A DNA stretch of 64,000 nt from an uncultured bacterium (lineage in GTDB: Bacteria; Patescibacteriota; Minisyncoccia; UBA6257; GWB1-50-10). Below, in pieces: positions 9,054-61,071 of the stretch (positions are counted from its first letter, which is position 1; every line of letters begins with the position of its first letter). The notes below the pieces were generated by a model. The model had not been told where the DNA came from and did not search any database. It was given only the letters and a program-made list of their open reading frames with translations. The stretch spans positions 378,252 to 442,251 of the forward strand of contig OY970216.1 of NCBI GenBank assembly GCA_963713955.1, read 5' to 3'. The position numbers were made by a program, and so were the translations under genes.

Positions 9054-10355
9054 ATGATGAGAGGGAAAATAAAAAACTTCGAGAAGCTGAGTGTGACGTT
9101 TGCGAGAAAACTCGCCTTGGAGATCGCCGAAACGGGGCTTCGGGCGATCGATACAGAAAAGTCCATTCAATCGCGAGTATCCTTGAGAGATAACGTCCTG
9201 AAAATAGACAGTGAGTCGTTCGACACTGGAGGCTTCCAGAGGATATTCGTTGTCGGCGTCGGGAAGTGCGCGCTTGAGGCGGGGAGAGCTCTCGAAGAAG
9301 TGCTTGGGGAAAGATTGGAAGGAGGGATCGTTCTCGACGTTCACAAGGGAAATTTGAACAAAATCAAGGCATACTCCGGCACGCATCCGTTCCCGACCGA
9401 AGTGAACGTCGACGTGACGAGCGAGATCATTCGCCTCCTTTCGTCTCTCACAGAAAGAGATTTCGTCATTTTCGTGATCTCCGGCGGCGGTTCAACGCTT
9501 CTCTGCCAGCCCAAAAATATGGTTTGCACAGAAGAGGCGGAAATATTGAAAACTCTCTTCGAAAAGGGAGCGACGATCCAGGAGATCAATACTATAAGAA
9601 AACATCTGTCGCTGGCCCGCGGCGGGCATCTGGCTCAATACGCGTATCCGGCGTCTTCGGTTGCCCTGATCTTCTCGGACGTTCCGGGAGATAATCCGGA
9701 ATTCATCGCCTCGGGCCCAACGGTGAAGGACGTGACGACGGTAGATGAAGCGAGAGCGATCATCGGTAAGTACGACCTTGAGAAAAGCACGGGTTTGAAA
9801 ATAGAGCCCTTGAAGACGCCGAAGGACGACAAATATTTCGAGAAGGTAAAGAATATTCTCTTTATTTCCAACGAAACCGCGCTTTCCGCCATGAAAATCG
9901 ACGCCGAGTCGCGGGGATTCCGGGTTAAGGTAGTGACGAGGGTTTTAAGCGGCGAAGCCAGGGATGTCGGAAAAAGGATCGCGGTTGATGTCATGGGATC
10001 GCCTGACAAAACGATTCGTCTTTACGGCGGCGAAACGACGGTGACCATAAAAAAGAAGGGGAGAGGCGGCCGTAACCAGGAGCTTATTTTGGGAGCTCTC
10101 GGGGAAATACGGGAAGAGACGCTCATCGTCTCTTTCGATTCCGACGGCCACGATAACGAGGGAGGATACGCGGGAGCTCTTTGTGATATAATGACAAGAG
10201 AGAAAGCCGAAAAGCTCGGTTTGAATCCTGAAAATTTTTTGGAGGAGAACGATTCGACGGAGTTTTTCGAAAAAGTCGGAGATTATTTGGAAATGGGAGA
10301 TACGGGATCGAACGTGTCGGATCTCATAATTGCCCTGAAGAGCAATGAGAATTAG
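9054..10355 (+). CDS. glycerate 2-kinase (MOFRL family)
   Basis: GVGKCA, ISGGGSTLL and SDVPGDNPEFIASGPT motifs of DUF4147/MOFRL glycerate kinases. Confidence 0.7.
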   Translation: MMRGKIKNFEKLSVTFARKLALEIAETGLRAIDTEKSIQSRVSLRDNVLKIDSESFDTGGFQRIFVVGVGKCALEAGRALEEVLGERLEGGIVLDVHKGNLNKIKAYSGTHPFPTEVNVDVTSEIIRLLSSLTERDFVIFVISGGGSTLLCQPKNMVCTEEAEILKTLFEKGATIQEINTIRKHLSLARGGHLAQYAYPASSVALIFSDVPGDNPEFIASGPTVKDVTTVDEARAIIGKYDLEKSTGLKIEPLKTPKDDKYFEKVKNILFISNETALSAMKIDAESRGFRVKVVTRVLSGEARDVGKRIAVDVMGSPDKTIRLYGGETTVTIKKKGRGGRNQELILGALGEIREETLIVSFDSDGHDNEGGYAGALCDIMTREKAEKLGLNPENFLEENDSTEFFEKVGDYLEMGDTGSNVSDLIIALKSNEN

Positions 10356-13342: not shown

Positions 13343-15244
13343 ATGGCGAAGGAGACAACCGATAGGAAAGACAACTTAAGGTTGAGCATCGTCTTCAACG
13401 AAGCGCTGATCATCGTTTTTGTTTTGGCGCTTGTTTCGACGTGGGCTCGCCTCTTGTCAACCGTGGTGGGGAACGATATTCTAATCATCGTTTCGGTCAT
13501 CGGCGTCGTGCCCGTCGCGTGGAGTGCCGCGAAAGCGATCCGGAGGAAAAAAATAACCATAGATCTCTTGGCCTCGATCGCGCTCGCCTTCACGTTCATA
13601 AAAGGGGAGTGGCTGTCGGCTGCTTTCATCAACCTCATGCTCGCTTCGGCCCGGCTCTTCGACAAATTCACGGAAACTCGGACTCGACACGTCATTGAGC
13701 GCCTCATGAAGCTCCGGCCCGAGCGGGTGAAGGTAAAAATCGGCGACAAGTTCGAGGAAGTTCATATAGACAAAGTGAAGGTAGGCGATCTCGTGGTCAT
13801 CGAGTCCGGCGAGCGGGTTCCGGTCGACGGCGTGGTGATCCAGGGGCAGGCGAGCATCGATCAGTCGACCTTGACCGGCGAGAGCGAACACATAACCAAG
13901 AAAGAAGGCGATAAGGTTTACAGCTCGACTCTGAACGATTCCGGATCGCTCGTCGTGAGAGCCGAGAAAGTCGGGGCTGACACTACGCTCTCGAAAATCG
14001 TTTCCCTGGTCGACGAAGCGTCGAGGGCTAAAACGAACATCGAAAGGATAGCCGACCGGTTCAGTTCCTGGTATGTGTTTTTGACGCTCGTCGGATCGGG
14101 CGTCATTTATTTTTTCTCGCGCGATTTGAACGTGGTTTTGAGCGTCCTTTTGGTCACCTGCGCCGACGACATCGCCGTTGCGGTGCCTCTGGGGTTCACG
14201 ATAGCCATAGCCAAAGCCGGCCGCGAAGGAATCGTAGTCAAAGGTGCCGCCATATTTGAGAGGATCAAGAAACTCAAAACATTTGTCACTGACAAGACGG
14301 GTACGCTCACGAAAGGCCTCGCGAAAGTCGTCACGCCGTTCCGTTTCGGAGATATGTCCGAGGAAGAATTCTTGAAAATCGTCGGTACCTGCCAGATGAA
14401 TTCTCGGCATCCGGTGAGTTTGGCGATGCTCAGGTTTTTGAGCGAGAAGAAGATTTCTTATCCGGCGCCCGATGAGTTCAATGAAACGCCGGGAGACGGA
14501 ATCGCCGTGAAAAGAAACGGGAGGCAATTCGTCGCCGGGAAGCTGTCCTTTTTGGAAACCATGGGAATTCGCGCGACCGGTGAGCAGAAGAAAAAGATCA
14601 ATGAGTTTGAGGATAAAGGGTACAGCCTGACTGCCGTCGGATCGGAAGGAAAGCTTTTAGGTCTTATGGTCTTGGAGGACGAGGTGCGGCCGCTCGCGAG
14701 ATTGAGTGTTGCGGAAACGAGGAGACTCGGCGCCGAGCGCTGGATCATGCTCACGGGTGACAACGAGAAGGTGGCGAAAAAAGTCTCGGATGAAGTCGGC
14801 TTGGACGAATACCACGCCGATTTGAAGCCGGAGGACAAACTGGATTTGATAAAAAGCTTCAAAAAGAAATATCAAGGCGATCTTGCGATGATGGGAGACG
14901 GCGTGAATGACGCGGCCGCCTTGGCCCTGGCGGATGTTTCGATCGCCATGGGTGCGATTGGGTCGGACGCGGCGATCGAAGCTGCAGACATCGCCTTGAT
15001 GCACGACAGCGTAAAAAAGATCCCGGAACTCATGCTCTTGAGCAGTAAATCGATGAAAATTATTAACAACAACTTCTGGATCTGGGGGGTTACAAACGCT
15101 CTCGGTTTGATTCTCGTCTTCGGCGGCATTTTGGGTCCTACTGGCGCTGCGGCGTACAACTTCGTGACTGATTTCTTTCCCGTCATGAACGTTTTCGAGA
15201 TATATTTCCTCAACATTAAGCTCAAAGAAAAGATGTTACAATAA
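13343..15244 (+). CDS. P-type cation-transporting ATPase
   Basis: DKTGTLT phosphorylation site and GDGVNDAAALA hinge, with multiple TMs. There is no CPC motif, so specificity is unclear. Confidence 0.8.
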   Translation: MAKETTDRKDNLRLSIVFNEALIIVFVLALVSTWARLLSTVVGNDILIIVSVIGVVPVAWSAAKAIRRKKITIDLLASIALAFTFIKGEWLSAAFINLMLASARLFDKFTETRTRHVIERLMKLRPERVKVKIGDKFEEVHIDKVKVGDLVVIESGERVPVDGVVIQGQASIDQSTLTGESEHITKKEGDKVYSSTLNDSGSLVVRAEKVGADTTLSKIVSLVDEASRAKTNIERIADRFSSWYVFLTLVGSGVIYFFSRDLNVVLSVLLVTCADDIAVAVPLGFTIAIAKAGREGIVVKGAAIFERIKKLKTFVTDKTGTLTKGLAKVVTPFRFGDMSEEEFLKIVGTCQMNSRHPVSLAMLRFLSEKKISYPAPDEFNETPGDGIAVKRNGRQFVAGKLSFLETMGIRATGEQKKKINEFEDKGYSLTAVGSEGKLLGLMVLEDEVRPLARLSVAETRRLGAERWIMLTGDNEKVAKKVSDEVGLDEYHADLKPEDKLDLIKSFKKKYQGDLAMMGDGVNDAAALALADVSIAMGAIGSDAAIEAADIALMHDSVKKIPELMLLSSKSMKIINNNFWIWGVTNALGLILVFGGILGPTGAAAYNFVTDFFPVMNVFEIYFLNIKLKEKMLQ

Positions 15245-15248
15245 AATT

Positions 15249-16430
15249 ATGTCTCGCTTTTCCTTCACCCTCATCGAGCTCCTGGTCGTGATCGCGATCT
15301 TAGCCGTCCTTGCAACCGCCGTCGTCTTGGTCTTGAATCCCGCCCAGCTCTTAGCTCAAGGAAGAGATTCAACCAGGCTCTCTGATCTTTCAGCCCTGAA
15401 TAGTGCCTTATCCCTCTTCCAAGCAGATCAATATACCCAGTCCTTAGGGACTCCGAATACCCTCTACGTATCAGTCCCCGATACCACATCCACCTGTGCC
15501 AATCTGGGACTGTCTTCTCCTCCTATAGGATGGGCCTATCACTGTGTTCCTGCCTCTTCTTCCACCAAGGTAGACGGAACAGGCTGGATTCCCGTGAATC
15601 TCACCCTTATTTCATCAGGATCCCCTTTATCCAAGCTCCCCATAGATCCGACTAACACTTCGTCCTCGAACCTCTACTATGCCTATGTGATGAGCGGAAC
15701 AAATTACCAGTTAACTGCTCACATGGAGTCTCAGAAATATGTCTCCCAGGAAGCTGCTTCCGGAGGAGCCGATCTTGCGATGTACAAGATTGGTTCCAAC
15801 ATTAACATCGCTCCCTTCGTGGGAGGGCTCGTGGGATACTGGTCTTTTGACGAGGGAGGGGGAGCAACCACAACCCTGGATCAATCGGGTTTCGGATCGA
15901 ATGGCTCGTGGTCAGGAACTCAAACGGGGGGGTCCTACTATATAGCGGGTAAGATAGGATTCGCTGGGAATTTCAACGGGAGTGATGACAAGGTTACTGT
16001 TTCGGGAGTTGACCCACTCCTTAACGGATCTCAAGGAACTATTATGGCGTGGGCATATCCTAGCGCCAGTAGTAATGGAAACAACATTTTCGAATCGGTT
16101 GGTCCATCCAGTAACAGATTCTATTTGTCGTATGGTTCTACTTTTCAAGTGTATAGAGGTAACCCCTACACGCAAATAGTGTTAGGTGTTGGGGCACTGA
16201 ACACGTGGTATCATATAGCGCTTTCATGGAACGCGACAACTATGTACGGATATTTCAACGGGAACCTCGTGAACTCGGCAGGTTATACCAATACAAGTAG
16301 TTCGGGAGGGGGCTCCACAATCGGGTCCCAATCACCAGCTTATTTTGCTGGCGAGATTGATGATGTTAGGGTGTACAACCGCGCCCTCTCCGCCGCCGAG
16401 ATAGCCGCGATTTATAATGCACAGAAATAG
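15249..16430 (+). CDS. type IV pilin-like protein fused to LamG/concanavalin-A-like lectin domain (paralog 1)
   Basis: Class-III signal FTLIELLVVIAILAVLA with Glu+5. C-terminal IDDVRVYNRALSAAEI LamG signature. The 5' ~400 bp is near-identical to paralogs at 39290 and 46852. Confidence 0.7.
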   Translation: MSRFSFTLIELLVVIAILAVLATAVVLVLNPAQLLAQGRDSTRLSDLSALNSALSLFQADQYTQSLGTPNTLYVSVPDTTSTCANLGLSSPPIGWAYHCVPASSSTKVDGTGWIPVNLTLISSGSPLSKLPIDPTNTSSSNLYYAYVMSGTNYQLTAHMESQKYVSQEAASGGADLAMYKIGSNINIAPFVGGLVGYWSFDEGGGATTTLDQSGFGSNGSWSGTQTGGSYYIAGKIGFAGNFNGSDDKVTVSGVDPLLNGSQGTIMAWAYPSASSNGNNIFESVGPSSNRFYLSYGSTFQVYRGNPYTQIVLGVGALNTWYHIALSWNATTMYGYFNGNLVNSAGYTNTSSSGGGSTIGSQSPAYFAGEIDDVRVYNRALSAAEIAAIYNAQK

Positions 16431-25878: not shown

Positions 25879-25900
25879 GCCCCGCTCAAGCGGGGTTTTC
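25879..25900 (+). terminator. rho-independent terminator after rpsI
   Basis: GCCCCGC-tcaa-GCGGGG stem followed by TTTT. Confidence 0.7.
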
Positions 25901-26066
25901 TCTTACGCTATTGTTGGGATAGAAGGGGTCGGGGAGGAACGGGAAATGAGTTCCTCCCCGTGTAGGAAGCTATGAGAAACCGAGGGTTTCTCAGGAGCGA
26001 GTTGCTGCATAGCGACTCGCGACGCAGCATTGGCGGAAGTCGTTTTCTCCACTGCTGGGATCTGCT

Positions 26067-26255
26067 AAAAACTATTCAGCCTCCTCGCTAAAACCCTCGG
26101 TTATCAAAATCCTCCTCGCTCTTCGTCGGAATTATCCGCAAAATATCGAACTCGACCTAAAGGGACTCAAACAGCGATATTTTGCTCATTCCTTCCTCAT
26201 TGCTCGGGGATTTTGAAACAATCTCGAACAAACCGCTCAAAAGCTGAATAGTTTT
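26067..26255 (+). repeat. palindromic intergenic repeat, copy R1
   Basis: Bounded by AAAACTATTCAGC/GCTGAATAGTTTT inverted repeats. The inner stem is GCAAAATATCG...CGATATTTTGC. It shares CTCCTCGCT...TCGTCGGAAT and GCTCATTCCTTCCTCA..GCTCGGGGATTTTGA blocks with 6 other copies. Confidence 0.8.
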
Positions 26256-27664: not shown

Positions 27665-28520
27665 TGCAGGGTATCCCTAGTCAATTGGCGCAAAGGTTAA
27701 CGACTTTTTGAGGTAGTTCCTGGGGTTTTGAAACAATTCCGGTGAGGAAAATCTGACGGAAAATTCCCTCACGTAGTCAGGCATCTTCTCCGCGGTCACG
27801 TGATGGTACATTCTCCTCACGAATGTCCTGAAGTTCCCGAACATCCCCTCGATCTCGGAGGTCTTCCCGAACTCCCATTTAGCATGGATGTCCCGTTCGT
27901 GTCTCACTGGCCACCATCTCTCGATGCCCCGGTATATGGCTGCCCCATCGGTATGGAGCCTCGCCCTCGGCTTCACGTACTCCATGAGGAACCGAACCGC
28001 TTCTGCTCGGTCAACCGACTTCTCGGGCAAAACCACGTACGCGACCTTTCTCGAGCGCTCCTCTTTCCCCATGATGAGTGACCAGCCCTTGCCGTATGCC
28101 TCATCGAGCTGCACGATCCGTGAGAGAATATCATGGTTTTGAGGCAGGTGTTCCCGGAAGCGGTCGTACCAGCGACGGATGGCCATCTCGGAAAGCCCCG
28201 AGAGGTTCATGGCTTGAACAACGGGTATCTTTTCGCACCACGCCCAGAGGATGAGCCACCACGTCTCAAGCGGGAGCTTCAGATCGCTTAACCAGGTGTA
28301 TGAGAGGAGGGTGAACCTTCTCCGACATCGGGGGCACCAGTACCGATCCTTCTCCTTCCAGACATCCCGGTACCGACAGCGGGGACAGTACACATTCTTG
28401 CCAAAGAGCGTTCTCCGGAGAAACTTCCTGATCTGGGCTTCCGACGGTATTTGATTCAATTGGTACATATCCTTCATGGTATGCGATATGCGCCAACATG
28501 ATTAGAGTACCCGTGCACTA
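27663..28520 (-). mobile_element. IS1595-family insertion sequence (~860 bp) inserted into a copy of the conserved 45-bp module
   Basis: Imperfect terminal IRs TGTGCAGGGTATCCCTAGTCAAT (left) and ATGATTAGAGTACCCGTGCAC (right, reverse complement). GTGCA is repeated at both junctions. Confidence 0.65.
27677..28477 (-). CDS. IS1595-family (ISXO2-like) DDE transposase
   Basis: N-terminal CPRC...CPRC zinc ribbon and an HTDGAAIY DDE segment. 266 aa. Confidence 0.8.
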   Translation of the reverse strand: MKDMYQLNQIPSEAQIRKFLRRTLFGKNVYCPRCRYRDVWKEKDRYWCPRCRRRFTLLSYTWLSDLKLPLETWWLILWAWCEKIPVVQAMNLSGLSEMAIRRWYDRFREHLPQNHDILSRIVQLDEAYGKGWSLIMGKEERSRKVAYVVLPEKSVDRAEAVRFLMEYVKPRARLHTDGAAIYRGIERWWPVRHERDIHAKWEFGKTSEIEGMFGNFRTFVRRMYHHVTAEKMPDYVREFSVRFSSPELFQNPRNYLKKSLTFAPID

Positions 28521-29583: not shown

Positions 29584-29847
29584 ATGGCTAACAAAAAAGG
29601 ATATCGGGTAGCGAAAGAGGTAAAAGCGGAGATTGTCCGCCGCGTGAAGGAAGAAGGCGTCTCCGTCGCAGAAGCGGCAAAAGATGCAGGCGTCCACGAG
29701 ACAACCGTGTATGGATGGCTCGGCGCCGGTGCCACGAGCGCTCCCTCCTGGGGAGAAATCAATCGCCTAAAGAAACAGAATCAGGAACTCTTCGAAGTGA
29801 TCGGTGAACTCACGATCAAGCTGTCCCAGACCCAAAAAAAGAATTGA
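29584..29847 (+). CDS. IS3 transposase OrfA (HTH)
   Basis: 87-aa HTH/leucine-zipper OrfA ending at AAAAAAAG. Confidence 0.8.
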   Translation: MANKKGYRVAKEVKAEIVRRVKEEGVSVAEAAKDAGVHETTVYGWLGAGATSAPSWGEINRLKKQNQELFEVIGELTIKLSQTQKKN

Positions 29848-30626
29848 GCAGGGAAAGGAACGTATCCGCCCTGGCTCGCGCCATGGGTGTCTCGCGCTCA
29901 TCGCTCTATTACGTCGCAACGCAGGACAAGAAGGATTGGGCATTAAAGGTCCGGACGGAGGAGGTGCTTCACGAGCATCCCTCATACGGCTCACGCCGAC
30001 TGGCGATTGCGCTCGGCATCGGCAGACCGAGAGCGCAACGGGTCATGCGGATTTACGGCATCAAGCCCTACCGCAGGCATGGGAGAAAATACAGGAAATC
30101 CAAGGCGGAACGGCACTTCCCGAACCTCCTCCTCGGCATTATGCCATCATATGCGAACCATGTCTGGGCGACGGATTTCACGGAGCTTGTCTTTCACGGG
30201 AAGAAGCTGTACGTATCAACGATCCTTAACCTGTTTACGAGGCAACTGATGGGCGTTCATGTGGCGACCCGGAAGGGATCGACGCTCACCATCCAAACTC
30301 TGGCGAACGCGCTCTTCCATTGCCCGCGACCCGTGATCTTCCATTCTGACAACGGGAGGGAATACGAAGCGAAGGCGTTCATCGCTATGCTTGAGCGCTA
30401 CGGCATCACCATCTCCCGCTCACGCCCCGGATCGCCGTGGGAGAACGGATACCAAGAATCTTTCTACGGAAAATTCAAAATGGATCTTGGCGATCCTAAT
30501 CGGTTCAGATCCTTAGGGGAACTTGTGGCGGAGATCTACCGAACGCTTTGGGAGTACAACCATACAAGAATCCACTCCGCTCTCAGGATGCCGCCTTCGG
30601 TGTTTGCAGAGAAGATAGCAGTGTGA
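29844..30626 (+). CDS. IS3 transposase OrfB (DDE integrase core), -1 frame
   Basis: HSDNGREYEAK, WENGYQESFYGKFK and NHTRIHSAL integrase-core motifs. Frame -1 relative to orfA. Confidence 0.8.
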   Translation: MSRERNVSALARAMGVSRSSLYYVATQDKKDWALKVRTEEVLHEHPSYGSRRLAIALGIGRPRAQRVMRIYGIKPYRRHGRKYRKSKAERHFPNLLLGIMPSYANHVWATDFTELVFHGKKLYVSTILNLFTRQLMGVHVATRKGSTLTIQTLANALFHCPRPVIFHSDNGREYEAKAFIAMLERYGITISRSRPGSPWENGYQESFYGKFKMDLGDPNRFRSLGELVAEIYRTLWEYNHTRIHSALRMPPSVFAEKIAV

Positions 30627-30969
30627 GAGAATGAAAAAACGACGAGAAAACTTGTCGAGTGACTGTCTAAAGAAACCTATCCATCACACCGGCCCAATCA
30701 GTACGAAATAAGAAGTATTTCAAGTCCGACAAGATGGGTCACCGCCACTTGTGGTCAAAGACCCAATGGGTTGAGTTTCTAAAAAACTACTATAAGATCA
30801 AAGAAGCAAGAGTGGTTAGAGCGATTCGAAAAGATGACCTGGTTATAGCTCTTACTAAAAAGTAGATATTATTTTAACTAATCGGAATTTGTCCCTTCCG
30901 TCATTTTCTCCCACTGGCCTGACCCCCATATATTAGACACAAAGGTCGAAGTCAATATACCCTTGTGTC

Positions 30970-31227
30970 ATGAAGAAAACATATCGCACTGCTCCCGAGG
31001 TGAAGGAGCAGATATTGAAGAGAATCAAGGAGGAAGGGATCCCGGTCGTCCAGGCCGCCAAGGAACACGGTCTGAATCCCGCCACCATATACAACTGGCT
31101 GGGAAGGGGCGTGAAAGGCACCCCCACGATCGGTGAACTCGTCCGCCTCAAGCGCCAGAACGAAGAGCTCCTCGCCCTCGTGGGCGAGCTCACCCTGGCC
31201 TCCTCACGCACTCAAAAAAAGCGTTGA
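30970..31227 (+). CDS. IS3 transposase OrfA
   Basis: 85 aa, identical to the 61072-61329 product. Confidence 0.8.
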   Translation: MKKTYRTAPEVKEQILKRIKEEGIPVVQAAKEHGLNPATIYNWLGRGVKGTPTIGELVRLKRQNEELLALVGELTLASSRTQKKR

Positions 31228-32033
31228 TCAAAAAGCAGAAGAAGACGAAGTGGGAACTTGCCCGTGAACTCGGCCTCTCCCGCGCCTCCCTCTACTATGT
31301 CTCGAAACAATCGCCCAAGGATTGGTCGCTCAAGGAAAGGATCATATCAGTCTTGAGAGACCATCCTTCATACGGCTTCAGAAGAGTGGCTTTGGAGCTC
31401 AAGATCAACAAAAAAAGAGCCCAACGGGTGATGAGGCTCTTCGGGATGAAGGCATATCGGAGAAGGGGCAGAAGGCCAAGGAAAACGGGCTTCTCGAGTA
31501 TCCTGTATCCCAATCTCCTTCAGAAGAACTTCCCCAAAGGATTGAACGATATCTGGGTGGCGGACTTCACGTACATCCCGTACCAAGGGAAGTTCCTGTA
31601 TCTCGCCACCGTGATGGATTTGTTTGCGAGGGAGATCGTGGGCTGGGCCGTGATGAATACCCACTCGGTGCCTCTGGTCCTCCAGGCACTCTTCTCCGCG
31701 GCGGAACATCATCCGAGACCCAACATCTTCCACTCGGACAACGGAAGGGAGTATGGCTCAAGGATCTTCACCGGAGCTCTTTTGAACCTCGGCGTCAGGA
31801 TATCGAGATCGAGGAAGTCATCGCCATGGGAGAACGGCTACCAGGAGTCCTTCTACTCCCAGTTCAAGGTGGATCTGGGCGATCCGGAGAGGTTCAAATC
31901 GCTGGGAGAGCTGGTCTACGAGATCCATCGCCTGGTCTGGGACTACAACCACCGGAGAATCCACTCCGCCCTCAGGATGCCGCCTGCACTGTTCTCGAAT
32001 CGCTACCAGAAACTTGTCGAAAAAGTGTCTTAA
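31224..32033 (+). CDS. IS3 transposase OrfB (-1 frame)
   Basis: HSDNGREYGSR...WENGYQESFYSQFK...NHRRIHSAL. Identical to the 61326-62135 product. Confidence 0.8.
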   Translation: MIKKQKKTKWELARELGLSRASLYYVSKQSPKDWSLKERIISVLRDHPSYGFRRVALELKINKKRAQRVMRLFGMKAYRRRGRRPRKTGFSSILYPNLLQKNFPKGLNDIWVADFTYIPYQGKFLYLATVMDLFAREIVGWAVMNTHSVPLVLQALFSAAEHHPRPNIFHSDNGREYGSRIFTGALLNLGVRISRSRKSSPWENGYQESFYSQFKVDLGDPERFKSLGELVYEIHRLVWDYNHRRIHSALRMPPALFSNRYQKLVEKVS

Positions 32034-33652: not shown

Positions 33653-33718
33653 GCAGTTTTCTTTCATCTTTACACGAACAAGAATCACTTGTCTTTTGAG
33701 CGAGTTGTTCGAGGCTGT

Positions 33719-33857
33719 TAAAAAATCCCCGAGCGATGAGGAAGGAATGAGCACAATAGCGAATGTTTGAATCCCGCTGGTTTCATTAATGAAACCAAGG
33801 TTGAGTTCGCTATTGTGCGACTTTATTTCGATGAAGAGCGAGGAGGATTTTAGCAAC
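33719..33857 (-). repeat. palindromic intergenic repeat, copy R2 (inverted relative to R1)
   Basis: Reverse complement of the GCTCATTCCTTCCTCATCGCTCGGGGATTTT block. Inner stem GCACAATAGCG...CGCTATTGTGC with a GGTTTCATTAATGAAACC insert shared with copy R6. Confidence 0.8.
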
Positions 33858-33900
33858 CGAGAATTGCAGCGAAGAAGATAAGTGGTTCTTGTTCTTGCTC

Positions 33901-35220
33901 TTATTTCAAGGTGACCTCGAAGAGGGAACCGCTTTTCAGGAAATAGAGTTGATCCCCCGACAAGGAGACCGCCGAGACGCCGCTGTCTATTTTGTACTGG
34001 TTTTGGGGCATCCGCTCGTCGAGTTCGCTCAGGACGAGGTTTCCGCCCTCCAGGATCACGCCGTAGTTTGGAGCGTAGGGGATCCAGATGAAATCGGAAA
34101 CCGGATAGTCGGTTTTCACGCTCCAGAAAGTTCCTTTTTGCACTTGATAATCGGATCGGTAATCGTTCACGGCGAGCATCGACAAACTTCCGTTGTCGGC
34201 GACGAGCGCTAATCTGTCGTCGTCGGGAGAAACGTAGATTTCACGAACCGTCGGCAAGAGAGTTTCCAAAGAAGTCGTCGTCTGGTTTGATCGGTCGTAT
34301 TCGTAGAGCTTGTGCGCGATGTCCGTGAGGAAGAGCGTGCTGCCGAGAGAAGTGGTCTTGATATCGGACATATCTTTTATCCCAGTTGCAAGGGTTATTT
34401 GAGTTCTCAAAAAAAGATTCGCCGAAAATATGTTACCGTTCTCCTCCGCGACGAATATTTCGTTGCCTTTGGCGTAGGAGTATTGGTTGTCGGGCAAGGA
34501 ATACAATTTTTGGCTTGCTCCGCTCGAGATGTTGATGGCGTATACCGCTTTGTTGCCGATGGCTATGACGCTGTTTTGGTCGAAGGGATGATAAGACCAG
34601 TATTTTATCGAAGCCCCCGCGGGTAGCTCGACGTCCGCGTATCGGGGCGCGTTCGCGAGATCCATGACGTAATAGTCTTTCGCGTCGCCGGTGACGATGA
34701 TGCTCCGCCGTTCGCTGCTCAAAACCACTGAACTCCCTTTTACTTTCTGATCTCCCAGAAGGAGGGTGCCGGTGGCGTCTTTGATGACGAGGCCGTTGCC
34801 GGTGAGCCAGAAGGCGGAAGCATTGTACTCTGATATTTTTTTCGCGCTCCAATTTACGGGCCAGAGAATAATTTGCGAGGCCGCGGTCACGACGCCCGGC
34901 TCAATTTGCAAGTTTTTCTCCCACGGCGAGTAACCGGGGTACGTTACCGTGACGTCGTACGAGCCGGGGAGCAGGTTGTCGAAGAAAGCCCCGCTCGAAA
35001 AGAAGTTCCCGATGACGTTCGAGTAGTCCCGGACCACCCCGTCTATTTCGATCTGCGATCCCGAGGGGGTGAAGTCTAGGTACATGCCGCCGGTCCTCGC
35101 GAACTGGAACGTCTTGTAGTTGAACGAAAGCCCTTGGGCGGAAATCACAAGATAAGCGCCTCCGAAGAGAAAAACGAAAATGAAGAGATAAAAGAAGAAT
35201 TTCCTGGCTTTTAAATTCAC
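33901..35220 (-). CDS. hypothetical membrane-anchored protein with beta-rich (propeller/PEGA-like) ectodomain
   Basis: 439 aa with an N-terminal TM. Repeated Y..D/N..G segments. No catalytic motif. Confidence 0.45.
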   Translation of the reverse strand: MNLKARKFFFYLFIFVFLFGGAYLVISAQGLSFNYKTFQFARTGGMYLDFTPSGSQIEIDGVVRDYSNVIGNFFSSGAFFDNLLPGSYDVTVTYPGYSPWEKNLQIEPGVVTAASQIILWPVNWSAKKISEYNASAFWLTGNGLVIKDATGTLLLGDQKVKGSSVVLSSERRSIIVTGDAKDYYVMDLANAPRYADVELPAGASIKYWSYHPFDQNSVIAIGNKAVYAINISSGASQKLYSLPDNQYSYAKGNEIFVAEENGNIFSANLFLRTQITLATGIKDMSDIKTTSLGSTLFLTDIAHKLYEYDRSNQTTTSLETLLPTVREIYVSPDDDRLALVADNGSLSMLAVNDYRSDYQVQKGTFWSVKTDYPVSDFIWIPYAPNYGVILEGGNLVLSELDERMPQNQYKIDSGVSAVSLSGDQLYFLKSGSLFEVTLK

Positions 35221-39048: not shown

Positions 39049-39087
39049 GGGGGAAATCTTTTGCTTTCTCGTTGAAAGCGCTCCGAT

Positions 39088-39235
39088 CTCTAAAATCCTC
39101 CTCGCTTCTCGTCGGAATCAAGCCGCAAAATATCGAACTCAACCTCGTCCGCCAGCTGGCGGAGGCGGATTCGGGATTCAAACATGCGATATTTTGCTCA
39201 TTCCTTCCTCAGGGCTCGGGGATTTTGACGAGATC
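39088..39235 (+). repeat. palindromic intergenic repeat, copy R3
   Basis: AAAATCCTCCTCGCTTCTCGTCGGAAT head. GCAAAATATCG...CGATATTTTGC stem. GCTCATTCCTTCCTCAGGGCTCGGGGATTTTGA tail. Confidence 0.8.
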
Positions 39236-39271
39236 TTCGCGAAACTAACTCAAAAGCAAAAGATTTTCCTG

Positions 39272-39280
39272 TGTTATAAT
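39272..39280 (+). promoter_or_regulatory. extended -10 (TGTTATAAT) upstream of pilin paralog 2
   Basis: TGnTATAAT consensus 10 bp before the ATG at 39290. Confidence 0.4.
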
Positions 39281-39289
39281 AAGAAAACA

Positions 39290-40513
39290 ATGACCTCTCG
39301 CCAATCTTTCACCCTGATTGAGCTCCTCGTAGTCATCGCGATCTTGGCGATCCTCGCGACCGCCGTCGTCCTCGTCTTGAATCCTGCCCAGCTTCTTGCC
39401 CAGGGAAGAGATTCCACGAGACTCTCTGATCTTTCCGCTCTGAACAGCGCCCTCTCCTTATTTCAGGCTGATGCCTATACCCAATCCTTAGGGACTCCTA
39501 ACACAGTCTATATATCAATCCCTGATTCATCATCCACCTGTGGGGACCTGGACCTGCCTGCCTTAGGAGGAGGCTGGGCCTATCACTGTGTTCCAAGCTC
39601 TTCCTCAACAAGAGTAGACGGAACAGGCTGGATTCCCGTGAATCTCACCCTTATTTCATCAGGATCCCCTTTATCCAAGCTCCCCATAGACCCCGTGAAT
39701 ACCACAAGCACTGGACTCTACTATACCTACGTATCAGGAGGCTCCTATGCCTTATCCAGTGCCTTGGAATCACAGAAGTACCTTGTATCCACCGCAGCAA
39801 CAGATAATGGCTATGATCCAGGAAGATACGAAACAGGTTCTGACCTTTCCCTTATTGGAAGAAGTGAAGGATTGGTAGGATGGTGGCCCCTCGATGGAGA
39901 CCCAGGGGACAGGAGCGGGAATGGGAATGGGGGGACGCCGATTAACAATCCCGCGTGGACTACGGGGAAGATAAATCAAGCCATTAGTCTTAACGGATCA
40001 AACAATAACTTGGGGAATTACCTCAATATCCCAAGTGTGAGCAATCTCAATATAACTAACTCAGTTACCCTTGCGGCATGGGTTAACAGAAATACTAGCG
40101 GCGCGGATTTACAGGGGGTAATAACGAAATCTAGTCCTGCAACGAGAGCCTACAGCCTCACAACCCAATATAATACCCCAACGTATCAAGTACAGTTGGC
40201 GATCAACGGCACGTTTTGTCCCTACATTGCTCCCACCAATTATAACCAATGGCATTACGTTGCCGGCGTTTACGACGGGACAAATGAAAACGTTTACTAT
40301 GACGGTGTTTTGGTCCAGACGTGTCCTAAAACCGGTTCGATTAACGTCACGAGCGATCCTCTTTATATTGGACTTTACAATTATGCTATCGGCACTGAAG
40401 GTTCGTCTTGGTATGGATATCGCCCCTTCGGCGGCCTGATCGATGATGCCCGTGTCTATAATCGCGCCCTCTCAGCAGCTGAGATCCAAGCTATCTACAA
40501 CGCACAGAAATAG
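39290..40513 (+). CDS. type IV pilin-like/LamG fusion (paralog 2)
   Basis: MTSRQS|FTLIELLVV signal and a LamG C-terminus (IDDARVYNRALSAAEIQAIYNAQK). The ORF-track start at 39194 runs through repeat R3 and is rejected. Confidence 0.7.
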   Translation: MTSRQSFTLIELLVVIAILAILATAVVLVLNPAQLLAQGRDSTRLSDLSALNSALSLFQADAYTQSLGTPNTVYISIPDSSSTCGDLDLPALGGGWAYHCVPSSSSTRVDGTGWIPVNLTLISSGSPLSKLPIDPVNTTSTGLYYTYVSGGSYALSSALESQKYLVSTAATDNGYDPGRYETGSDLSLIGRSEGLVGWWPLDGDPGDRSGNGNGGTPINNPAWTTGKINQAISLNGSNNNLGNYLNIPSVSNLNITNSVTLAAWVNRNTSGADLQGVITKSSPATRAYSLTTQYNTPTYQVQLAINGTFCPYIAPTNYNQWHYVAGVYDGTNENVYYDGVLVQTCPKTGSINVTSDPLYIGLYNYAIGTEGSSWYGYRPFGGLIDDARVYNRALSAAEIQAIYNAQK

Positions 40514-40677
40514 GAAGTAAAGCACCAAATCTCAAGCTCCAAATCCCAAATAATGACCGAAATTCCAAAGAGCGTGTTTAGAATTTGATATTTTGAATTT
40601 ATTTGTTATTTGGAATTTGGATTTTGGGATTTCATCTCACTTGTTACTAGTTACTGATTGTTTGTATAATCTAAAGG

Positions 40678-41727
40678 ATGGAGATAGTGCTCGTCATTTT
40701 GGGTCTCGGCATACTGATTTTAGGCCATGAGTTCGGCCATTTTTCGGTTGCGCGGATCTTGAAAATGAAAGTCGAGGAATTCGGCATAGGGTTCCCCCCG
40801 AAGCTTTTCGGCAAGAAAGCCAAGTCCGGAATTGTCTACAGCGTGAACGCTCTCCCGTTCGGCGGATTTGTAAAGCTGTACGGAGAGGATGATAACAAGA
40901 GCGGTGACCCTGAAGCGTTTCTCAATAAACCTTTTCGCAAGAAAGCGTTTGTTGTCCTTGCGGGCGTCATCGCGAATTTCATCCTTGGATGGCTCCTCCT
41001 GAGCGTCGTTTTGATCGCGGGGACGCCGGAGCACCTAATGATCGCAAGCGTCGAGAATAATTCTCCTGCCGCCGAAGCGGGGCTCAAAGAAGGCGATATC
41101 GTAAAACAGATCACTATGGGTGGCAAGTCGCTTTCCGATCCAATCATCGACAACGATTTCGTGAATCTCGTGAAAGGTTCGAGTGAAGCGGCCGTCTCGC
41201 TCAGCATTCTCCGCGGCACGCAAAGTTTCAACGTGGCGTTGGATAAGAGGTTGAGTCCGCCGCCGGGACAAGGGGCCATCGGCATAGGCTTAGTCGATAT
41301 CGGCGCGGCGCCGGAGCCGTTCTTCAAGAGTTTCTCTGATGCCGCTTTAGAAACGGTTAATTTTTCCTGGCTCATTTTGAGCGGACTCTGGACGCTTCTC
41401 ACAGGGCTTTTCACGAATCCAAGCGTCATAAAGGGAGTGGCGGGGCCCGTTGGCATCGTGGCCTTAGCGTCAGAGGCTTCTGCGATCGGCTTTGCATACC
41501 TGGTCCAGCTTCTCGCGCTCATATCTATAAACTTAGCGGTCCTGAACCTCATTCCGTTCCCGGCATTGGATGGCGGGAGATTCCTCGTTTTCCTCATTGA
41601 GAAAATCAGGGGCAAGAAGATTTCTTCGAAGATCCAACTTGCCGTGAACGGGATCGGGTTCGCGGCGCTCGTGCTCCTCATGATCTTCGTCACGTTTAAC
41701 GATGTCAGAAACCTCATCGTCCACTGA
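40678..41727 (+). CDS. rseP: site-2 (RIP) zinc metalloprotease RseP
   Basis: HEFGHF HExxH in TM1, a PDZ segment, and a LDGG motif. Confidence 0.85.
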   Translation: MEIVLVILGLGILILGHEFGHFSVARILKMKVEEFGIGFPPKLFGKKAKSGIVYSVNALPFGGFVKLYGEDDNKSGDPEAFLNKPFRKKAFVVLAGVIANFILGWLLLSVVLIAGTPEHLMIASVENNSPAAEAGLKEGDIVKQITMGGKSLSDPIIDNDFVNLVKGSSEAAVSLSILRGTQSFNVALDKRLSPPPGQGAIGIGLVDIGAAPEPFFKSFSDAALETVNFSWLILSGLWTLLTGLFTNPSVIKGVAGPVGIVALASEASAIGFAYLVQLLALISINLAVLNLIPFPALDGGRFLVFLIEKIRGKKISSKIQLAVNGIGFAALVLLMIFVTFNDVRNLIVH

Positions 41728-42773: not shown

Positions 42774-42877
42774 TATTCTCTGGCGAGCATATATATTCCG
42801 TAAGCTTCTTCGAAGCACATATACTCGCGGTGTGGGTATGGAGCAGGCAAAGGATATGAAAGTGCTCTCGAACGATT

Positions 42878-43027
42878 CTGCCGGAAGGCGTTTCAAAATC
42901 CCCGAACGATGAGGAGAGAATAAGCAAAATATCGCTGTTTGAGTCCCTTCAGGTCGAGTTCGATATTTTGCGGATAATTCCGACGAAGCGGTCGGAGGAT
43001 TTTAATGCCTGGAGGTTTAAGTGAGAG
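42878..43027 (-). repeat. palindromic intergenic repeat, copy R4 (reverse orientation)
   Basis: TTCAAAATCCCCGAACGATGAGGAGAGAATAAGCAAAATATCG...CGATATTTTGC...CGACGAAGCGGTCGGAGGATTTT. Confidence 0.8.
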
Positions 43028-43080
43028 AGTGCTTTCATATCCTTTGCCAATGGGAATGTTCTTTGATAGAATTCATTGAA

Positions 43081-46524: not shown

Positions 46525-46810
46525 ACGAAGCAACCTCAAGCCCCTTCTCGCTAAAACCTCCGGATGCAAAAATTCTCCTCGCTCATCCTGGGAAACCGGC
46601 GAAATTTATCAAACTCAACCTAAAGGGATTCAGACAATGATAAATTTCTGTTTCCTCACGTCTTCGCTCAGGAATTTTTATGCATCCTCCGGCAAATCGC
46701 TCAAAGGGACTTGAGGTTGCTTCTTTGTGCAAGAATATTATGGGAAGATTCATTTTGCTAAAACTCGGGGATTTTGAGACGCCTTCCGGAAAAGCGTTCG
46801 AGAGGGTTTT
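46525..46810 (+). repeat. palindromic intergenic repeat, copy R5 (largest copy)
   Basis: Nested IRs CAACCTCAAGCCCC/GGGACTTGAGGTTG and CCGGATGCAAAAATT/AATTTTTATGCATCCTCCGG. The inner stem GAAATTTATCA...TGATAAATTTC covaries with other copies. Confidence 0.8.
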
Positions 46811-46851
46811 GGGTTACTTCTTTCTTTTTGTTTTAGAGTATAATTGAATAC

Positions 46852-48183
46852 ATGAATCCCGGAAGCAGAGTAAGCTTTACCCTGATCGAGCTCCTGGTCG
46901 TGACCCCGATACGAAAGGCGTTCCACGCCTTCATACGGGGTAAATCGCCATCCTCTTCTCCCAGAGCTTCTTTTACCTTGATTGAATTGCTTGTGGTGAT
47001 TGCAATCCTCGCCGTCTTAGCCACCGCCGTCGTCTTGGTCTTGAACCCTGCCCAGCTATTGGCCCAGGGAAGAGATTCAACTCGTTTGTCTGATCTTTCA
47101 GCCCTGAATAGTGCCCTCTCCCTCTTCCAAGCAGATCAATATACCCAGTCCTTAGGGACTCCAAATACCCTCTATATATCCGTTCCCGATACCACGTCCA
47201 CCTGTGCCAATCTGGGACTGTCTTCTCCTCCTATAGGATGGGCCTATCACTGTGTTCCAAGCTCTTCCTCAACAAGAGTAGACGGAACAGGCTGGATTCC
47301 CGTGAATCTTACCCTCCTATCATCAGGATCCCCTTTATCCAAGCTCCCGATAGACCCCGTGAATACCACAAGCACAGGATTCTACTATACCTACGTATCA
47401 GGAGGCTCCTATGCCTTATCCAGTGCCTTGGAATCACAGAAATACCTCAGTTCTACTGCATCCCAGGACCAAGGCTATGATCCTGGGAAGTATGAGATCG
47501 GTTCTGACCTATCCCTTATTGGAAGGAGTGAGGGATTAGTAGGATGGTGGCCTTTGGATGGGAGTCCCAATGATCAGAGCGGAAACAACAACAATGGGAC
47601 GTGGTTTGGTTCCATGATCGGAGGTTCTTACTATACGGGAGGGAAGATCAATCAGGCCGGGAACTTCAATGGGACGGATGACTACGTGAGTGTGGGGAAT
47701 TCACCAATTTTTGATATGGGTACAGGAAATATGACCATTAGCGCCTGGTTGAGTTCTTACACAGATCCTAGCAATTATGGTAATGTTGTTGGCAAGATAA
47801 GCTGGAACGGAGTTCTTGGTTACGGTATTGTAAATGCCTATGATACTGGCACCAACTGTGTTATGGGGTATATGGCGAAGAACGGCATCAGCGATCGTGT
47901 GGTAAACGATTCAACTGCCTATTGCCCATCGTCTGGGTCCTGGCACCTTTATACCACCGTGTTTAATCGCGTGTCTAACACGTTAGCTCTCTATGTTGAT
48001 GGGAGTTTGGTGAATAGTAAGAGTATTGCCGGTTATTCCGGCGTCGGCTTTACGAACACAGCTGCTGTTACGATCGGCGTCTATGATAATAATTACCTAA
48101 AATCGAATATCGACGATGTCCGCATCTACAACCGCACCCTCTCCGCCGCGGAGATTCAAGCTATCTACAACGCCCAGAAGTAA
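46852..48183 (+). CDS. type IV pilin-like/LamG fusion (paralog 3) with duplicated N-terminal FTLIELLVV segment
   Basis: MNPGSRVS FTLIELLVV TPIRKAFHAFIRGKSPSSSPRAS FTLIELLVVIAILAVLA. The 5' ~650 bp is near-identical to paralog 2. LamG C-terminus. Confidence 0.65.
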   Translation: MNPGSRVSFTLIELLVVTPIRKAFHAFIRGKSPSSSPRASFTLIELLVVIAILAVLATAVVLVLNPAQLLAQGRDSTRLSDLSALNSALSLFQADQYTQSLGTPNTLYISVPDTTSTCANLGLSSPPIGWAYHCVPSSSSTRVDGTGWIPVNLTLLSSGSPLSKLPIDPVNTTSTGFYYTYVSGGSYALSSALESQKYLSSTASQDQGYDPGKYEIGSDLSLIGRSEGLVGWWPLDGSPNDQSGNNNNGTWFGSMIGGSYYTGGKINQAGNFNGTDDYVSVGNSPIFDMGTGNMTISAWLSSYTDPSNYGNVVGKISWNGVLGYGIVNAYDTGTNCVMGYMAKNGISDRVVNDSTAYCPSSGSWHLYTTVFNRVSNTLALYVDGSLVNSKSIAGYSGVGFTNTAAVTIGVYDNNYLKSNIDDVRIYNRTLSAAEIQAIYNAQK

Positions 48184-48261: not shown

Positions 48262-48482
48262 GAAAGGGAGGAAACCGAGCCCCTCTCGAGCGATTTGCCG
48301 GAAGGCGTTTCAAAATCCCCGAGCGATGAGGAAGGAATGAGCACAATAGCGAATGTTTGAATCCCGCTGGTTTCATTAATGAAACCAAGGTTGAGTTCGA
48401 TATTGTGCGATGCAATTCCGACGAAGCGGTCGGAGGATTTTGACGCCTGGAGGTTTAAGTGAGAGGGGGCTCGGTTTCCTCT
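48262..48482 (-). repeat. palindromic intergenic repeat, copy R6
   Basis: Bounded by a GGAAACCGAGCCCCTCTC / GAGAGGGGGCTCGGTTTCC 18-bp IR. Inner stem GCACAATAGCG...CGATATTGTGC with a GGTTTCATTAATGAAACC insert. Confidence 0.8.
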
Positions 48483-56028: not shown

Positions 56029-56072
56029 GGGGCTCGGGGATTTTGAAACAACCTCGAACAAATTCACTCAAG
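56029..56072 (+). repeat. partial tail copy (R7) of the palindromic repeat family
   Basis: GCTCGGGGATTTTGAAACAACCTCGAACAAATTCACTCAAGGG matches the R1 tail. Confidence 0.6.
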
Positions 56073-60768: not shown

Positions 60769-61038
60769 GTGAATGTCATGGCTGATCATTCTGATTATCT
60801 AATGAGAGAGGATTACTGCCGCCATATTTGTCACAAACCAGGACGTCGTTTCGTGTTCCATCTGATGCCATGTTGCAAAAAATGTGAACATTGCGGCCGT
60901 CAAATCAAAAAAGAAAGACACTCTGACCATGAGGAGAGGTGCAGAGACAGAAGAGTAAGGGTGGTGAAACTTGAAGGACAACTTCTCTACAAAGCGGATT
61001 ATTCGGATGTCTACTTTGGCCTGACCCCCATATATTAG
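60769..61038 (+). CDS. small Cys/His-rich protein; 3' end runs into IS3 copy 3 (possibly truncated)
   Basis: 89 aa with CRHICH...CCKKCEHCG. The last ~7 codons lie inside the IS left end. Confidence 0.3.
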   Translation: MNVMADHSDYLMREDYCRHICHKPGRRFVFHLMPCCKKCEHCGRQIKKERHSDHEERCRDRRVRVVKLEGQLLYKADYSDVYFGLTPIY

Positions 61039-61071
61039 ACACAAAGGTCGAAGTCAATATACCCTTGTGTC

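Follow-up and report, generated by a model that had tools for sequence, protein, structure and literature searches.

A family of long intergenic hairpins with an invariant apical motif in a Patescibacteria genome and in other bacterial phyla

A 64-kb stretch of the genome of an uncultured member of the Patescibacteria (also called the Candidate Phyla Radiation, CPR; contig OY970216.1, positions 378,252 to 442,251), hereafter the window, contains a palindromic repeat that recurs at gene boundaries in both orientations, and the locus raises the question of what kind of element this is. An earlier note, made from the letters of the window, had described such a family, and all of the copies that it named exist, as six full copies (R1 to R6) and two fragments. 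The covariance-model scan that it had proposed recovers exactly these six full copies, with E-values of 1e-18 to 1e-21, and none else in the 64 kb, and the core pattern used in scans, AACTCRACCT-N(3-33)-GGGAYTCARACA, matches six times, against 0.00 matches expected in shuffles. BLAST adds two 3'-end fragments, at 46764-46806 and 56030-56062. The strand given for a copy is that of the pyrimidine-rich pattern, or motif, strand, the opposite strand being purine-rich; by this convention, the orientation of the copies alternates along the window (+ - + - + -). The full copies are imperfect palindromes of 188-227 nt, small and multi-copy as is expected of a MITE (a miniature transposable element with inverted repeats; definition taken from PMC2229807), with central parts that are 72-91% identical to each other. 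No conserved open reading frame (ORF) was found in the window copies, the AUG-initiated mini-ORF on the purine-rich strand differing between them, and a small peptide encoded on that strand was rejected because the AUG is not conserved. The reading leaned towards here, at rather less than even confidence, is that of an old and very widespread family of intergenic long hairpins, a dispersed palindrome of the ERIC/YPAL kind that would work as a folded single strand, preferentially the purine-rich one.

Folding of the copies, another of the checks proposed earlier, shows that each forms a single long rod, and that rods form on both strands. Fold z-scores against dinucleotide shuffles range from -4.4 to -11.4 on either strand for R1, R2, R3, R5 and R6; the value of about -1.9 for R4 was measured on truncated coordinates, and the full-length fold energies of this copy are -73.8 / -92.7 kcal/mol. 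The rod is built in six layers, which begin with an outermost closing helix of 12-20 bp whose sequence is particular to each copy, followed by an A/U helix (AAAAU / AUUUU) and by internal loops that are pyrimidine-rich on one strand, with CTCGCT-like words repeated on both arms. The fourth layer is a freely covarying helix of about 11 bp. It is followed by the apical module, which is invariant and irregular (AACUC / UCARACA loop, then R:Y, A.A, C:G, C:G and U.G), and, at the tip, by a cap hairpin of any length. The invariant apical motif comprises 22 bases and reads AACTCRACCT-hairpin-GGGAYTCARACA. The three versions of the 11-bp stem that had been reported are as described, save for one U.C mismatch in R6 (GCACAATATCG / CGCTATTGTGC), and the hairpin GGTTTCATTAATGAAACC is indeed identical in R2 and R6. 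With regard to coordinates, those proposed for R1 stand, whereas those of the other copies are too narrow once the closing helices are counted, and the range 46525-46810 given to R5 merges the full copy with a separate fragment, R5b.

The pairing within this rod is maintained by compensatory change. RNAalifold, run on 37 CPR copies, predicted 27 pairs, 23 of which show compensatory changes, and in an alignment of 42 CPR copies to the covariance model 93.3% of the cells pair, versus 72.1% in shuffles, both sides having changed in 24 of the 28 pairs. The covariation score of this alignment is 0.555, compared with 0.10-0.12 when the partners are slid, and none of 500 shuffles reaches any of the five observed pairing measures, which points to selection for pairing. 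Moreover, the R:Y pair of the core, compared in 112 distinct copies from all phyla, is A-T in 56 and G-C in 54, with two exceptions (110 of 112 covary), and the helix adjoining the core retains 79% Watson-Crick pairs across 64 different 10-mers. The compensatory changes noticed earlier in the window are therefore genuine, as judged from RNAalifold, the controls on the 42-copy alignment and the R:Y covariation. The closing helices are a property of the individual copy: the distal flanks are complementary over at least 12 bp to their own partner in 49 of 59 CPR copies, versus 10 of 295 when flanks are taken from different copies. At the site downstream of rpsI, the closing helices of the window and of L117 and L118 (the L-codes label the 159 loci that were fetched) are mutually unrelated and each self-complementary; as far as CACTGCTGGGA, the window and L118 have a conserved left flank.

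The range of the family extends well past this genome, which lay beyond the view of the earlier note, as did the invariance of the apical motif across phyla and the occupation of the same sites in the same orientation in distant relatives. In a scan that covered one genome per species, and for which about 17 chance matches are estimated by our own arithmetic, the core motif was found at no fewer than 116 loci among the matches listed, in many phyla and including cultured isolates, and almost all matches to the core pattern are flanked by complementary sequence. The carriers include many classes of Patescibacteria; Desulfobacterales, in which near-identical copies are numerous and often lie at the ends of contigs; a complete metagenome-assembled genome (MAG) of a deltaproteobacterium, with at least 17 loci; and Methylophilaceae, Gallionella, Pusillimonas (Alcaligenaceae), Burkholderiaceae, Pseudohongiella and other Gammaproteobacteria, with Methylophilus sp. 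42, M. glucosoxydans CCUG 59685, M. flavus CCUG 58411, Pusillimonas noertemannii DSM 10065 and P. caeni KCTC 42353 among the cultured ones. A stricter CPR-type pattern identified 33 further loci in metagenomes. In the Desulfobacterales, the motif is central in a repeat that has sharp ends, measures about 330 bp and carries the terminal inverted repeat TATAGCGGTTTTCAAAAATATGTTCCG, common to its copies. In Betaproteobacteria (L004, L010, L013 and other Methylophilaceae/Gallionella loci) the core lies within a composite palindrome of about 450 nt that has terminal repeats of its own (TTCGCCTCTAGGCGAGTTACTTTC..). Some of these betaproteobacterial palindromes hold a second, degenerate core, and similar neighbouring ORFs, of 1265 aa and 282 aa, recur across genera at the betaproteobacterial loci.

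Searches of other collections returned little. Among 2.9 million viral contigs there was one chance-like coding match only, and plasmids gave chance matches only. Rfam 15, which includes 6S RNA, ribozymes and the RAGATH and HEARO motifs, gave nothing at the gathering threshold for the window and 12 related loci, and when three versions of the element were searched with E-values of up to 5-10 allowed, only chance snoRNA-like matches came up; ARAGORN found no tRNA or tmRNA gene in the window. Full-text literature searches for the core sequences turned up primer coincidences only, and no description of the element was found in the literature on Patescibacteria repeats, MITEs and structured RNA, so that, as far as the libraries searched show, no Rfam family or paper describes it. 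Several known motifs were considered and set aside because none suits the geometry of the pairing or is conserved from copy to copy, namely the tRNA T-arm, loop C of 5S rRNA (CGAACUCA), the 16S GCUCAACC hairpin, IHF and DnaA boxes, parS, boxA, SRP and 6S RNA.

Comparison with the contigs of syntenic relatives, whose ProS proteins are 68-84% identical to that of the window, shows that the copies are gained and lost, and the presence/absence check suggested earlier thus found the sites polymorphic. In the window a span of 22 kb contains six copies, whereas the syntenic 20 kb contain a single one in each of L117 and L118, which retain only the copy downstream of rpsI; L119-L123 and L126 have no copy in the shared region, and L125 has two, in other or shared slots. 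R2 to R6 are accordingly missing in L117-L123 and L126. The accessory island between R1 and R2 is missing in L117 and L118, the sole contigs of relatives that cover the rpsI side, and L125 and L126 have other genes upstream of the CarboxypepD_reg-like gene that follows the island in the window. The segment comprising R5, the fragment, pilin 3 and R6 is inserted into the mreD-mrdA junction, where the two genes abut or overlap in all seven of the readable relatives, a count in which L119 and L120 duplicate the arrangement of L118; R5 and R6 came in with the inserted pilin gene. Similarly, pilin 2, which adjoins R3, is missing in the relatives that cover the frr-rseP junction (L117, L118, L121, L125 and L126). 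Subfamilies cross species at different loci, R1 and R3 grouping with L032 and R4 and R6 with L096; R1 is 92% identical to L032 and 85% identical to the rpsI-site copy of L117. No direct repeats were seen by eye beside the window copies, and the empty sites of the relatives are too diverged for base-by-base alignment.

In multiplying, in being gained and lost, in lying in either orientation and in leaving fragments, the family resembles ERIC, YPAL and MITEs. Wilson and Sharp (2006) reportedly found ERIC to be stable and of low copy number in certain genera and abundant in others. The ERIC/IRU element (127 bp) is likewise an intergenic imperfect palindrome in the range of 100-200 nt that forms a long stem-loop, is co-transcribed and occurs in either orientation; its function is uncertain, and it is reported to affect mRNA stability in a manner that depends on orientation (PMC2229807). 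It carries, however, terminal inverted repeats, which are short, as well as TA ends and duplications of the target site (PMC2229807), none of which were seen by eye in the CPR copies, and is confined to enterobacteria and vibrios, whereas the motif described here spans Patescibacteria, Desulfobacterota and Proteobacteria. Furthermore, ERIC is not known to have copy-specific closing helices, and a blastn search of 5,426 complete genomes of E. coli, a carrier of ERIC, gave no match to a proteobacterial copy of the element. YPAL/RU-2 of Yersinia (168 bp) shares with the element a long palindrome without TA ends and with internal inverted repeats; it is not A+T-rich and inserts at or beside dyad symmetry (PMC2229807). 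Insertion of this kind would result in copy-specific complementary flanks such as those of the element. Despite this likeness, YPAL makes target-site duplications of 3-26 bp (PMC2229807), none of which were seen by eye here, is limited to Yersinia and Erwinia and has no known invariant apical motif. Membership of the element in either ERIC or YPAL fails on sequence and host.

Correia/NEMIS and other MITEs are comparable in being non-coding, shorter than about 250 bp, multi-copy and gained or lost between strains, and Correia/NEMIS transcripts form rods that RNase III can cleave, while pairs of these elements can enclose genes (PMC2229807). The Desulfobacterales form is MITE-like, with true terminal inverted repeats and sharp ends; the Patescibacteria copies, in contrast, have no shared terminal inverted repeats and no cognate insertion sequence (IS) in the window, and no TA ends or target-site duplications were seen in them by eye. 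Unlike Correia and other MITEs, some copies of the element keep the same site in deeply diverged lineages.

REP/REPIN sequences, which are associated with RAYT transposases, are extragenic palindromes that act as strand-specific hairpins at the ends of transcription units and are thought to move as single-stranded DNA. REPs are 20-40 nt long, GC-rich and species-specific, number in the hundreds and bear a GTAG or CGTC tag (PMC3733652). The element differs from them in its length of about 200 nt, its A/U-rich helix, its cross-phylum motif and the lack of a constant GTAG/CGTC end, and no RAYT-like gene was seen near it in the clustering of neighbours or in the Pfam search of 95 CPR neighbour proteins. 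The conserved core contains GAYTC (for instance at 26164-26168), which fits GANTC, the target of methyltransferases of the CcrM/HinfI type. The CIR repeats of Caulobacter are likewise built around such sites, and CIRs of Caulobacter and Brucella are also long and intergenic, without terminal inverted repeats and with a short motif kept across genera (PMC2229807). Nonetheless, the two halves of CIR fold separately (PMC2229807), whereas the element is one rod, and host range and sequence differ.

If the element is a dispersed palindrome of the ERIC/YPAL kind, it would act as a folded single strand, with the purine-rich strand as the better rod, and its invariant apical module would be the docking site for a trans-acting protein that copies or maintains it. 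Copies would survive only in the gaps from a stop codon to the next promoter. When transcribed, the rod would become a large hairpin in a 3' untranslated region (3'-UTR), which could act as a barrier or processing signal, as for ERIC and Correia. The mobile character put forward in the earlier note, which had likened the repeat to a MITE or a palindrome-associated transposable element (PATE), holds in so far as copies are gained and lost between syntenic relatives, but not with regard to ends, as the Patescibacteria copies have no conserved terminal inverted repeats and no match to IS ends in the window; 'MITE/PATE' is for this reason a description of behaviour and not a tested membership.

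Several observations weigh against this preferred reading. Conserved terminal inverted repeats, TA ends and target-site duplications were not seen by eye in the CPR copies, for which no systematic scan was made, and blastn found no IS copy in the window that shares the ends of the element. No transposase or other protein recurs beside it: the clustering of ORFs within 1.2 kb at the loci of the core-pattern scan (at least 116) returned only spurious ORFs over the element, Pfam assigned the 95 CPR neighbour proteins to diverse housekeeping genes, and the genes between paired copies in Deltaproteobacteria belong to ordinary metabolism. Outside the window the copy number is low, with one copy per locus in the 33 metagenome loci. 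Finally, some slots are filled in the same orientation in distant lineages: that between ddl and proS in L006, L135, L127 and L125 (Ddl 52-56% identical), that downstream of frr in L107, L148, L151 and L157 (Frr 58% identical), and the rpsI site in other lineages as well. The central regions are 80-92% identical between most of the species pairs compared (68-92% overall), and together with the retention of sites this looks, from sequence comparison, like purifying selection in place, which is not accounted for by a purely selfish element. Because copies are gained and lost and the same slots are nonetheless occupied in diverged lineages, the element both spreads and persists.

The two strands of the element are not equivalent, and the asymmetry bears on whether it works as DNA or as RNA. 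On the motif strand, flanks rich in pyrimidines are found in 100% of the copies from CPR and in 88% of those from elsewhere. In every lineage, both arms show an excess of CGCT/CTCG words, which outnumber their complement 1.5-7 times. The fold of the purine-rich strand is the better one, by 3-25 kcal/mol, and its rod includes wobble pairs, G.A pairs in tandem and GNA triloops. Isolated transition mismatches in the helices, read on the motif strand, are A.C in 122 cases versus G.U in 30, regardless of the orientation of the neighbours, and an A.C on the motif strand is a G.U on the purine-rich strand; this 122:30 count is inflated by shared descent, many non-CPR copies being near-identical. Two further counts limit this evidence, as the 28 central pairs are even, with 26 G.U and 26 A.C, and an ungapped count beside the core favours the motif strand by 57 to 35. 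The wobble-pair test is therefore a leaning and not decisive, since its result varies with the region.

Stable hairpins of DNA are typified by GNA triloops and by d(GCGNAGC), whereas selected RNAs favour GNRA and UUCG. At the tip of the element, GCGNAGC occurs on the purine-rich strand in 17 distinct inserts versus none on the other, and CGNAG in 37 versus 5; longer tips are perfect palindromes with symmetric centres (AGCT, TTAA), and of the tetraloops typical of RNA, UUCG was found at the tip 0 times and GNRA at most 5. After the rod, 58 copies show 3.09 T per 10 nt on the motif strand versus 2.97 on the other, with no enrichment of a U-tract. There is no conserved promoter for the element and no orientation bias relative to co-directional neighbours (8 versus 11 in CPR, 15 versus 9 elsewhere), nor does the strand asymmetry flip with orientation. 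The small RNA transcribed in both directions that the earlier note had offered as an alternative would accordingly lack a conserved promoter, a U-tract on either strand and RNA-type tetraloops at the tip. A folded single strand with the purine-rich strand active is favoured, and the GNA and d(GCGNAGC) tips, the missing U-tract and the missing orientation bias lean slightly towards a DNA-level intermediate that would have RNA-level side effects when transcribed. Folded single-stranded DNA sites such as attC, IS608 ends and single-strand origins are similar in that structure is conserved and sequence varies, one strand is active and the tips are stable mini-hairpins. They differ in their linked integrase, HUH transposase or Rep gene, none of which accompanies the element, and the orientation of the element is not uniform.

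Many of these features would also suit a structured RNA with a function in the host, be it a small RNA encoded in several copies or a 3'-UTR module that acts in cis, made from the purine-rich strand and duplicated only incidentally. A conserved protein, or else the ribosome, would then be bound by the apical loop and by the internal loops, which are GGAG/GA-rich. The strong covariation and the conserved interior with variable closing helix and tip have parallels in many RNA families. The retention of the ddl/proS, frr and rpsI sites over deep divergence, identities that remain high in most species pairs where neutral sites should be saturated, and the low copy number in most CPR genomes are consistent with such a role, as are the strand asymmetry in every lineage and the better fold of the purine-rich strand, on which the upstream gene would read four of the six window copies. 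This explanation is nonetheless unlikely, if worth keeping in view, because an RNA of this kind sits poorly with an asymmetry that is independent of orientation, with copies that show no bias relative to their co-directional neighbours, with the lack of a conserved promoter and of a U-tract on either strand, and with tips, GNA triloops and symmetric centres, that are more typical of DNA hairpins; even the relaxed Rfam search brought no relative. A related possibility, which we likewise consider doubtful, is that the family is an uncatalogued ancient structured nucleic acid common to Patescibacteria, Desulfobacterota and Proteobacteria, which would be either a multi-copy RNA, about 200 nt long, or a site on folded single-stranded DNA, with a putative conserved protein to recognise it; the MITE-like bursts of some lineages would be a secondary trait.

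The position of the copies between genes has been confirmed by Pfam, which places them at the boundaries rpsI/island, island/CarboxypepD_reg-like gene, frr/pilin, ddl/proS, mreD/pilin and pilin/mrdA (Table 1). The accessory island that follows rpsI, at 26.3-33.7 kb, contains a nucleoside deoxyribosyltransferase and a nucleotidyltransferase, fragments of IS1595 and of an asparaginase, two integrase genes of the IS3 type and a FliS-like ORF; beyond it lie the CarboxypepD_reg-like gene, a murA-like gene, frr, rseP, ddl, proS, mre genes and mrdA, and LamG domains occur in two pilin genes of the window. A -10 box, TATAAT or TACAAT (39275-39293, 46837-46854, 15235-15252 and 40665-40680), precedes the ATG of the pilin genes and of rseP by only 10-12 nt, which suggests that their mRNAs are probably leaderless, and a promoter-like site of proS, TTGCCA-17-TGnTAGAAT, overlaps the closing helix of R4. 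On the basis of these boxes and of the proS site, each window copy sits between a stop codon and the next promoter-like site.

Table 1. Full copies and fragments of the long-hairpin family in the window; strand refers to the motif strand.
Copy	Position	Strand	State	Core	Gene context	Sequence features	Relatives
R1	26068-26255	+	full, 188 nt	26149-26173	between rpsI and accessory island	pattern strand carries AACTCGACCT..GGGACTCAAACA; closing helix AAAAACTATTCAGC / GCTGAATAGTTTT	same-site, same-orientation copies in L117 and L118
R2	33672-33898	-	full, 227 nt	33764-33807	between island and CarboxypepD_reg-like gene (33901-35220, minus strand)	extra tip hairpin GGTTTCATTAATGAAACC	missing in relatives, which have no island
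R3	39051-39269	+	full, 219 nt	39136-39184	between frr and pilin gene 2; downstream pilin 2 with TATAAT 39275-39280, ATG 39291	tip hairpin CCGCCAGCTGGCGG	no counterpart in L117, L118, L121, L125, L126
R4	42846-43048	-	full, 203 nt	42936-42960	between ddl and proS; overlaps -35 box of proS promoter-like site (43044-43072)	17-bp closing helix GGCAAAGGATATGAAAG / CTTTCATATCCTTTGCC	ddl/proS slot empty in L117-L123 and L126
R5	46527-46723	+	full, 197 nt	46612-46636	directly 3' of mreD	closing helix GAAGCAACCTCAAG.CCCC / GGG.CTTGAGGTTGCTTC; most divergent copy, 72-80% identity to others	
R5b	46764-46806	+	fragment		5' of pilin 3 promoter	matches 3'-terminal part of R4/R6-type copy (CTCGGGGATTTTGAGACGCCTTCCGG..GTTCGAGAG)	
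R6	48270-48479	-	full, 210 nt	48354-48397	between pilin 3 and mrdA	tip hairpin as in R2; central part 90-91% identical to R4	
R7	56030-56072	+	3'-part-only fragment		3' of GC hairpin after pilin-like gene	GCTCGGGGATTTTGAAACAACCTCGAACAAAT..; 97% identical to R1 over 31 nt	

This position between stop codon and promoter, shared by all window copies, would be expected of an immobile hairpin at transcript ends that works in either orientation, as a REP-like stabiliser or a bidirectional terminator at operon boundaries. The formation of rods on both strands agrees with it, as does the placement of R1 and R2 amid convergent genes, an arrangement also found in L091, where two back-to-back copies lie between convergent genes. 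This explanation is nevertheless improbable. A bare hairpin needs neither an invariant 22-nt motif common to several phyla nor CTCGCT words on the same strand; that the element spreads is evident from its gain and loss, from its fragments and from the MITE form; and the T content after the rod is not enriched. In addition, L118 has a canonical terminator with a GC stem and a U-tract upstream of its copy, and the element is therefore unneeded for termination there. Two narrower versions were tried and rejected: a unidirectional terminator, in which the motif strand terminates and the other passes, fitted the window and failed the U-tract test on 58 copies and the orientation counts, and for an intrinsic terminator those 58 copies have no U-tract and the consensus scan flags only internal sub-hairpins. 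The argument of the earlier note against a simple cis-regulatory leader, made from the occurrence of copies in both orientations, is supported.

Some further features of these intergenic regions were recorded. A non-coding block 3' of rpsI and before the repeat is conserved (window 25900-26060, L117 1720-1850, L118 1880-2010); it contains a 10-bp hairpin, GGGGAGGAAC-GGGAAATGA-GTTCCTCCCC, without a match in Rfam, and on the L118 contig a duplicated canonical terminator, together with CACTGCTGGG, flanks the block. In L117, a 47-aa call (1966-2109) that may be spurious overlaps the 3' part of the element copy (1872-2028), and a 62-aa call (9681-9869) lies in the ddl-proS gap, where the covariance model finds no copy. 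The N-terminal methylation motif of pilin 3 is present twice (46875-46910 and 46971-47006). An AT-rich inverted repeat, CCAAATCCCAAATAA ... TTATTTGGAATTTGGATTTTGGGATTT, at 40530-40640 after pilin 2, stands outside the long-hairpin family.

The alternation of orientations in the window is also what a recombination site on DNA could produce if it bounded movable modules, in the manner of inverted pdif or folded attC sites, through a putative site-specific recombinase. Copies that lie a few kb apart are arranged as (+)(-) in all seven close CPR pairs (three in the window and one each in L125, L041, L091 and L031), three of which enclose accessory genes, namely pilin 3 in the window, an amidohydrolase in L031 and an unannotated 586-aa ORF plus ddl in L125; the island itself lies between R1 and R2, and structure is kept while sequence varies, as is the case for attC. 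Such a site is very improbable, however, as most copies are solitary, distant pairs on one contig are (-)(-) or (-)(+), no recombinase is linked among the neighbours, recombination at inverted sites inverts DNA and does not insert it, and R3 and R4 enclose the housekeeping genes rseP and ddl, which are present in relatives too. As for integrons, attC sites have R-boxes (RYYYAAC / GTTRRRY) and share a uniform orientation in their arrays; no such boxes were seen by eye at the ends of the element, and no intI-type integrase was found among the neighbour genes. The (+)(-) pairing may reflect composite units, palindrome recombination or convergent pairs of 3' elements as in L091.

Within one of these pairs, in a Liptonbacteria MAG (L041), the inverted copies at 1185-1340 (+) and 2720-2875 (-) enclose 1.4 kb of GC-rich DNA that appears to be non-coding and has no Rfam match; 5S and 23S rRNA genes lie a few kb away. 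A second repeat family, distinct from the long hairpins, occurs in two accessory regions of the window, one of which is the R1-R2 island. Its unit of about 30 nt reads CAGGAGTGGACGATGTTCGAACGATTTTAG on the minus strand, with an inner palindrome GTTCGAAC, and its 10-12 copies (positions 26759, 27643, 29103, 29400, 32428, 32987, 33632, 59279, 59773 and 60609) share one orientation regardless of gene strand. This repeat separates successive small accessory genes, looks like recombination sites bounding gene cassettes and was not found in any of the 159 fetched loci.

That the copies are ordinary MITEs derived from the IS3- or IS1595-family elements of the window, in which there are IS3-type integrases (two at 29844-32033 and a third at about 61 kb) and an IS1595 fragment, can be practically dismissed, as blastn at word size 7 of the six copies against the window returned only the two known fragments and chance 12-14-mers, the CPR copies are without terminal inverted repeats, and the match to IS ends that the earlier note had named as evidence against its claim was not found in the window. 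The IS elements themselves share segments, the IS3-family (rve integrase) segments at 30915-31214 and 61017-61316 being 100% identical and that at 30431-30604 being similar to 31820-31993 and 61922-62095, with two elements in tandem in the island and one 30 kb off; the IS1595-type transposase fragment lies at 27677-28477.

Taken as a whole, the interpretation of the earlier note is partly supported. As a rule, a dispersed palindromic repeat is confined to one species or genus, and we know of no precedent for an invariant, covarying apical module that several phyla have in common, for closing helices particular to each copy or for slots retained over deep divergence. The family is unusual in that ultra-small Patescibacteria and free-living Proteobacteria and Desulfobacterota have the motif in common, and in that the same slots are occupied in diverged lineages. 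The covariance model built here flags such elements during annotation, and the element accounts for contig breaks in Desulfobacterales MAGs. Since cultured carriers exist, the choice between RNA and DNA and the nature of a partner are accessible to bench work. The cross-phylum motif and the retention of slots suggest a conserved recognition partner, together with either an old function or gene flow from or to the communities in which episymbionts live.

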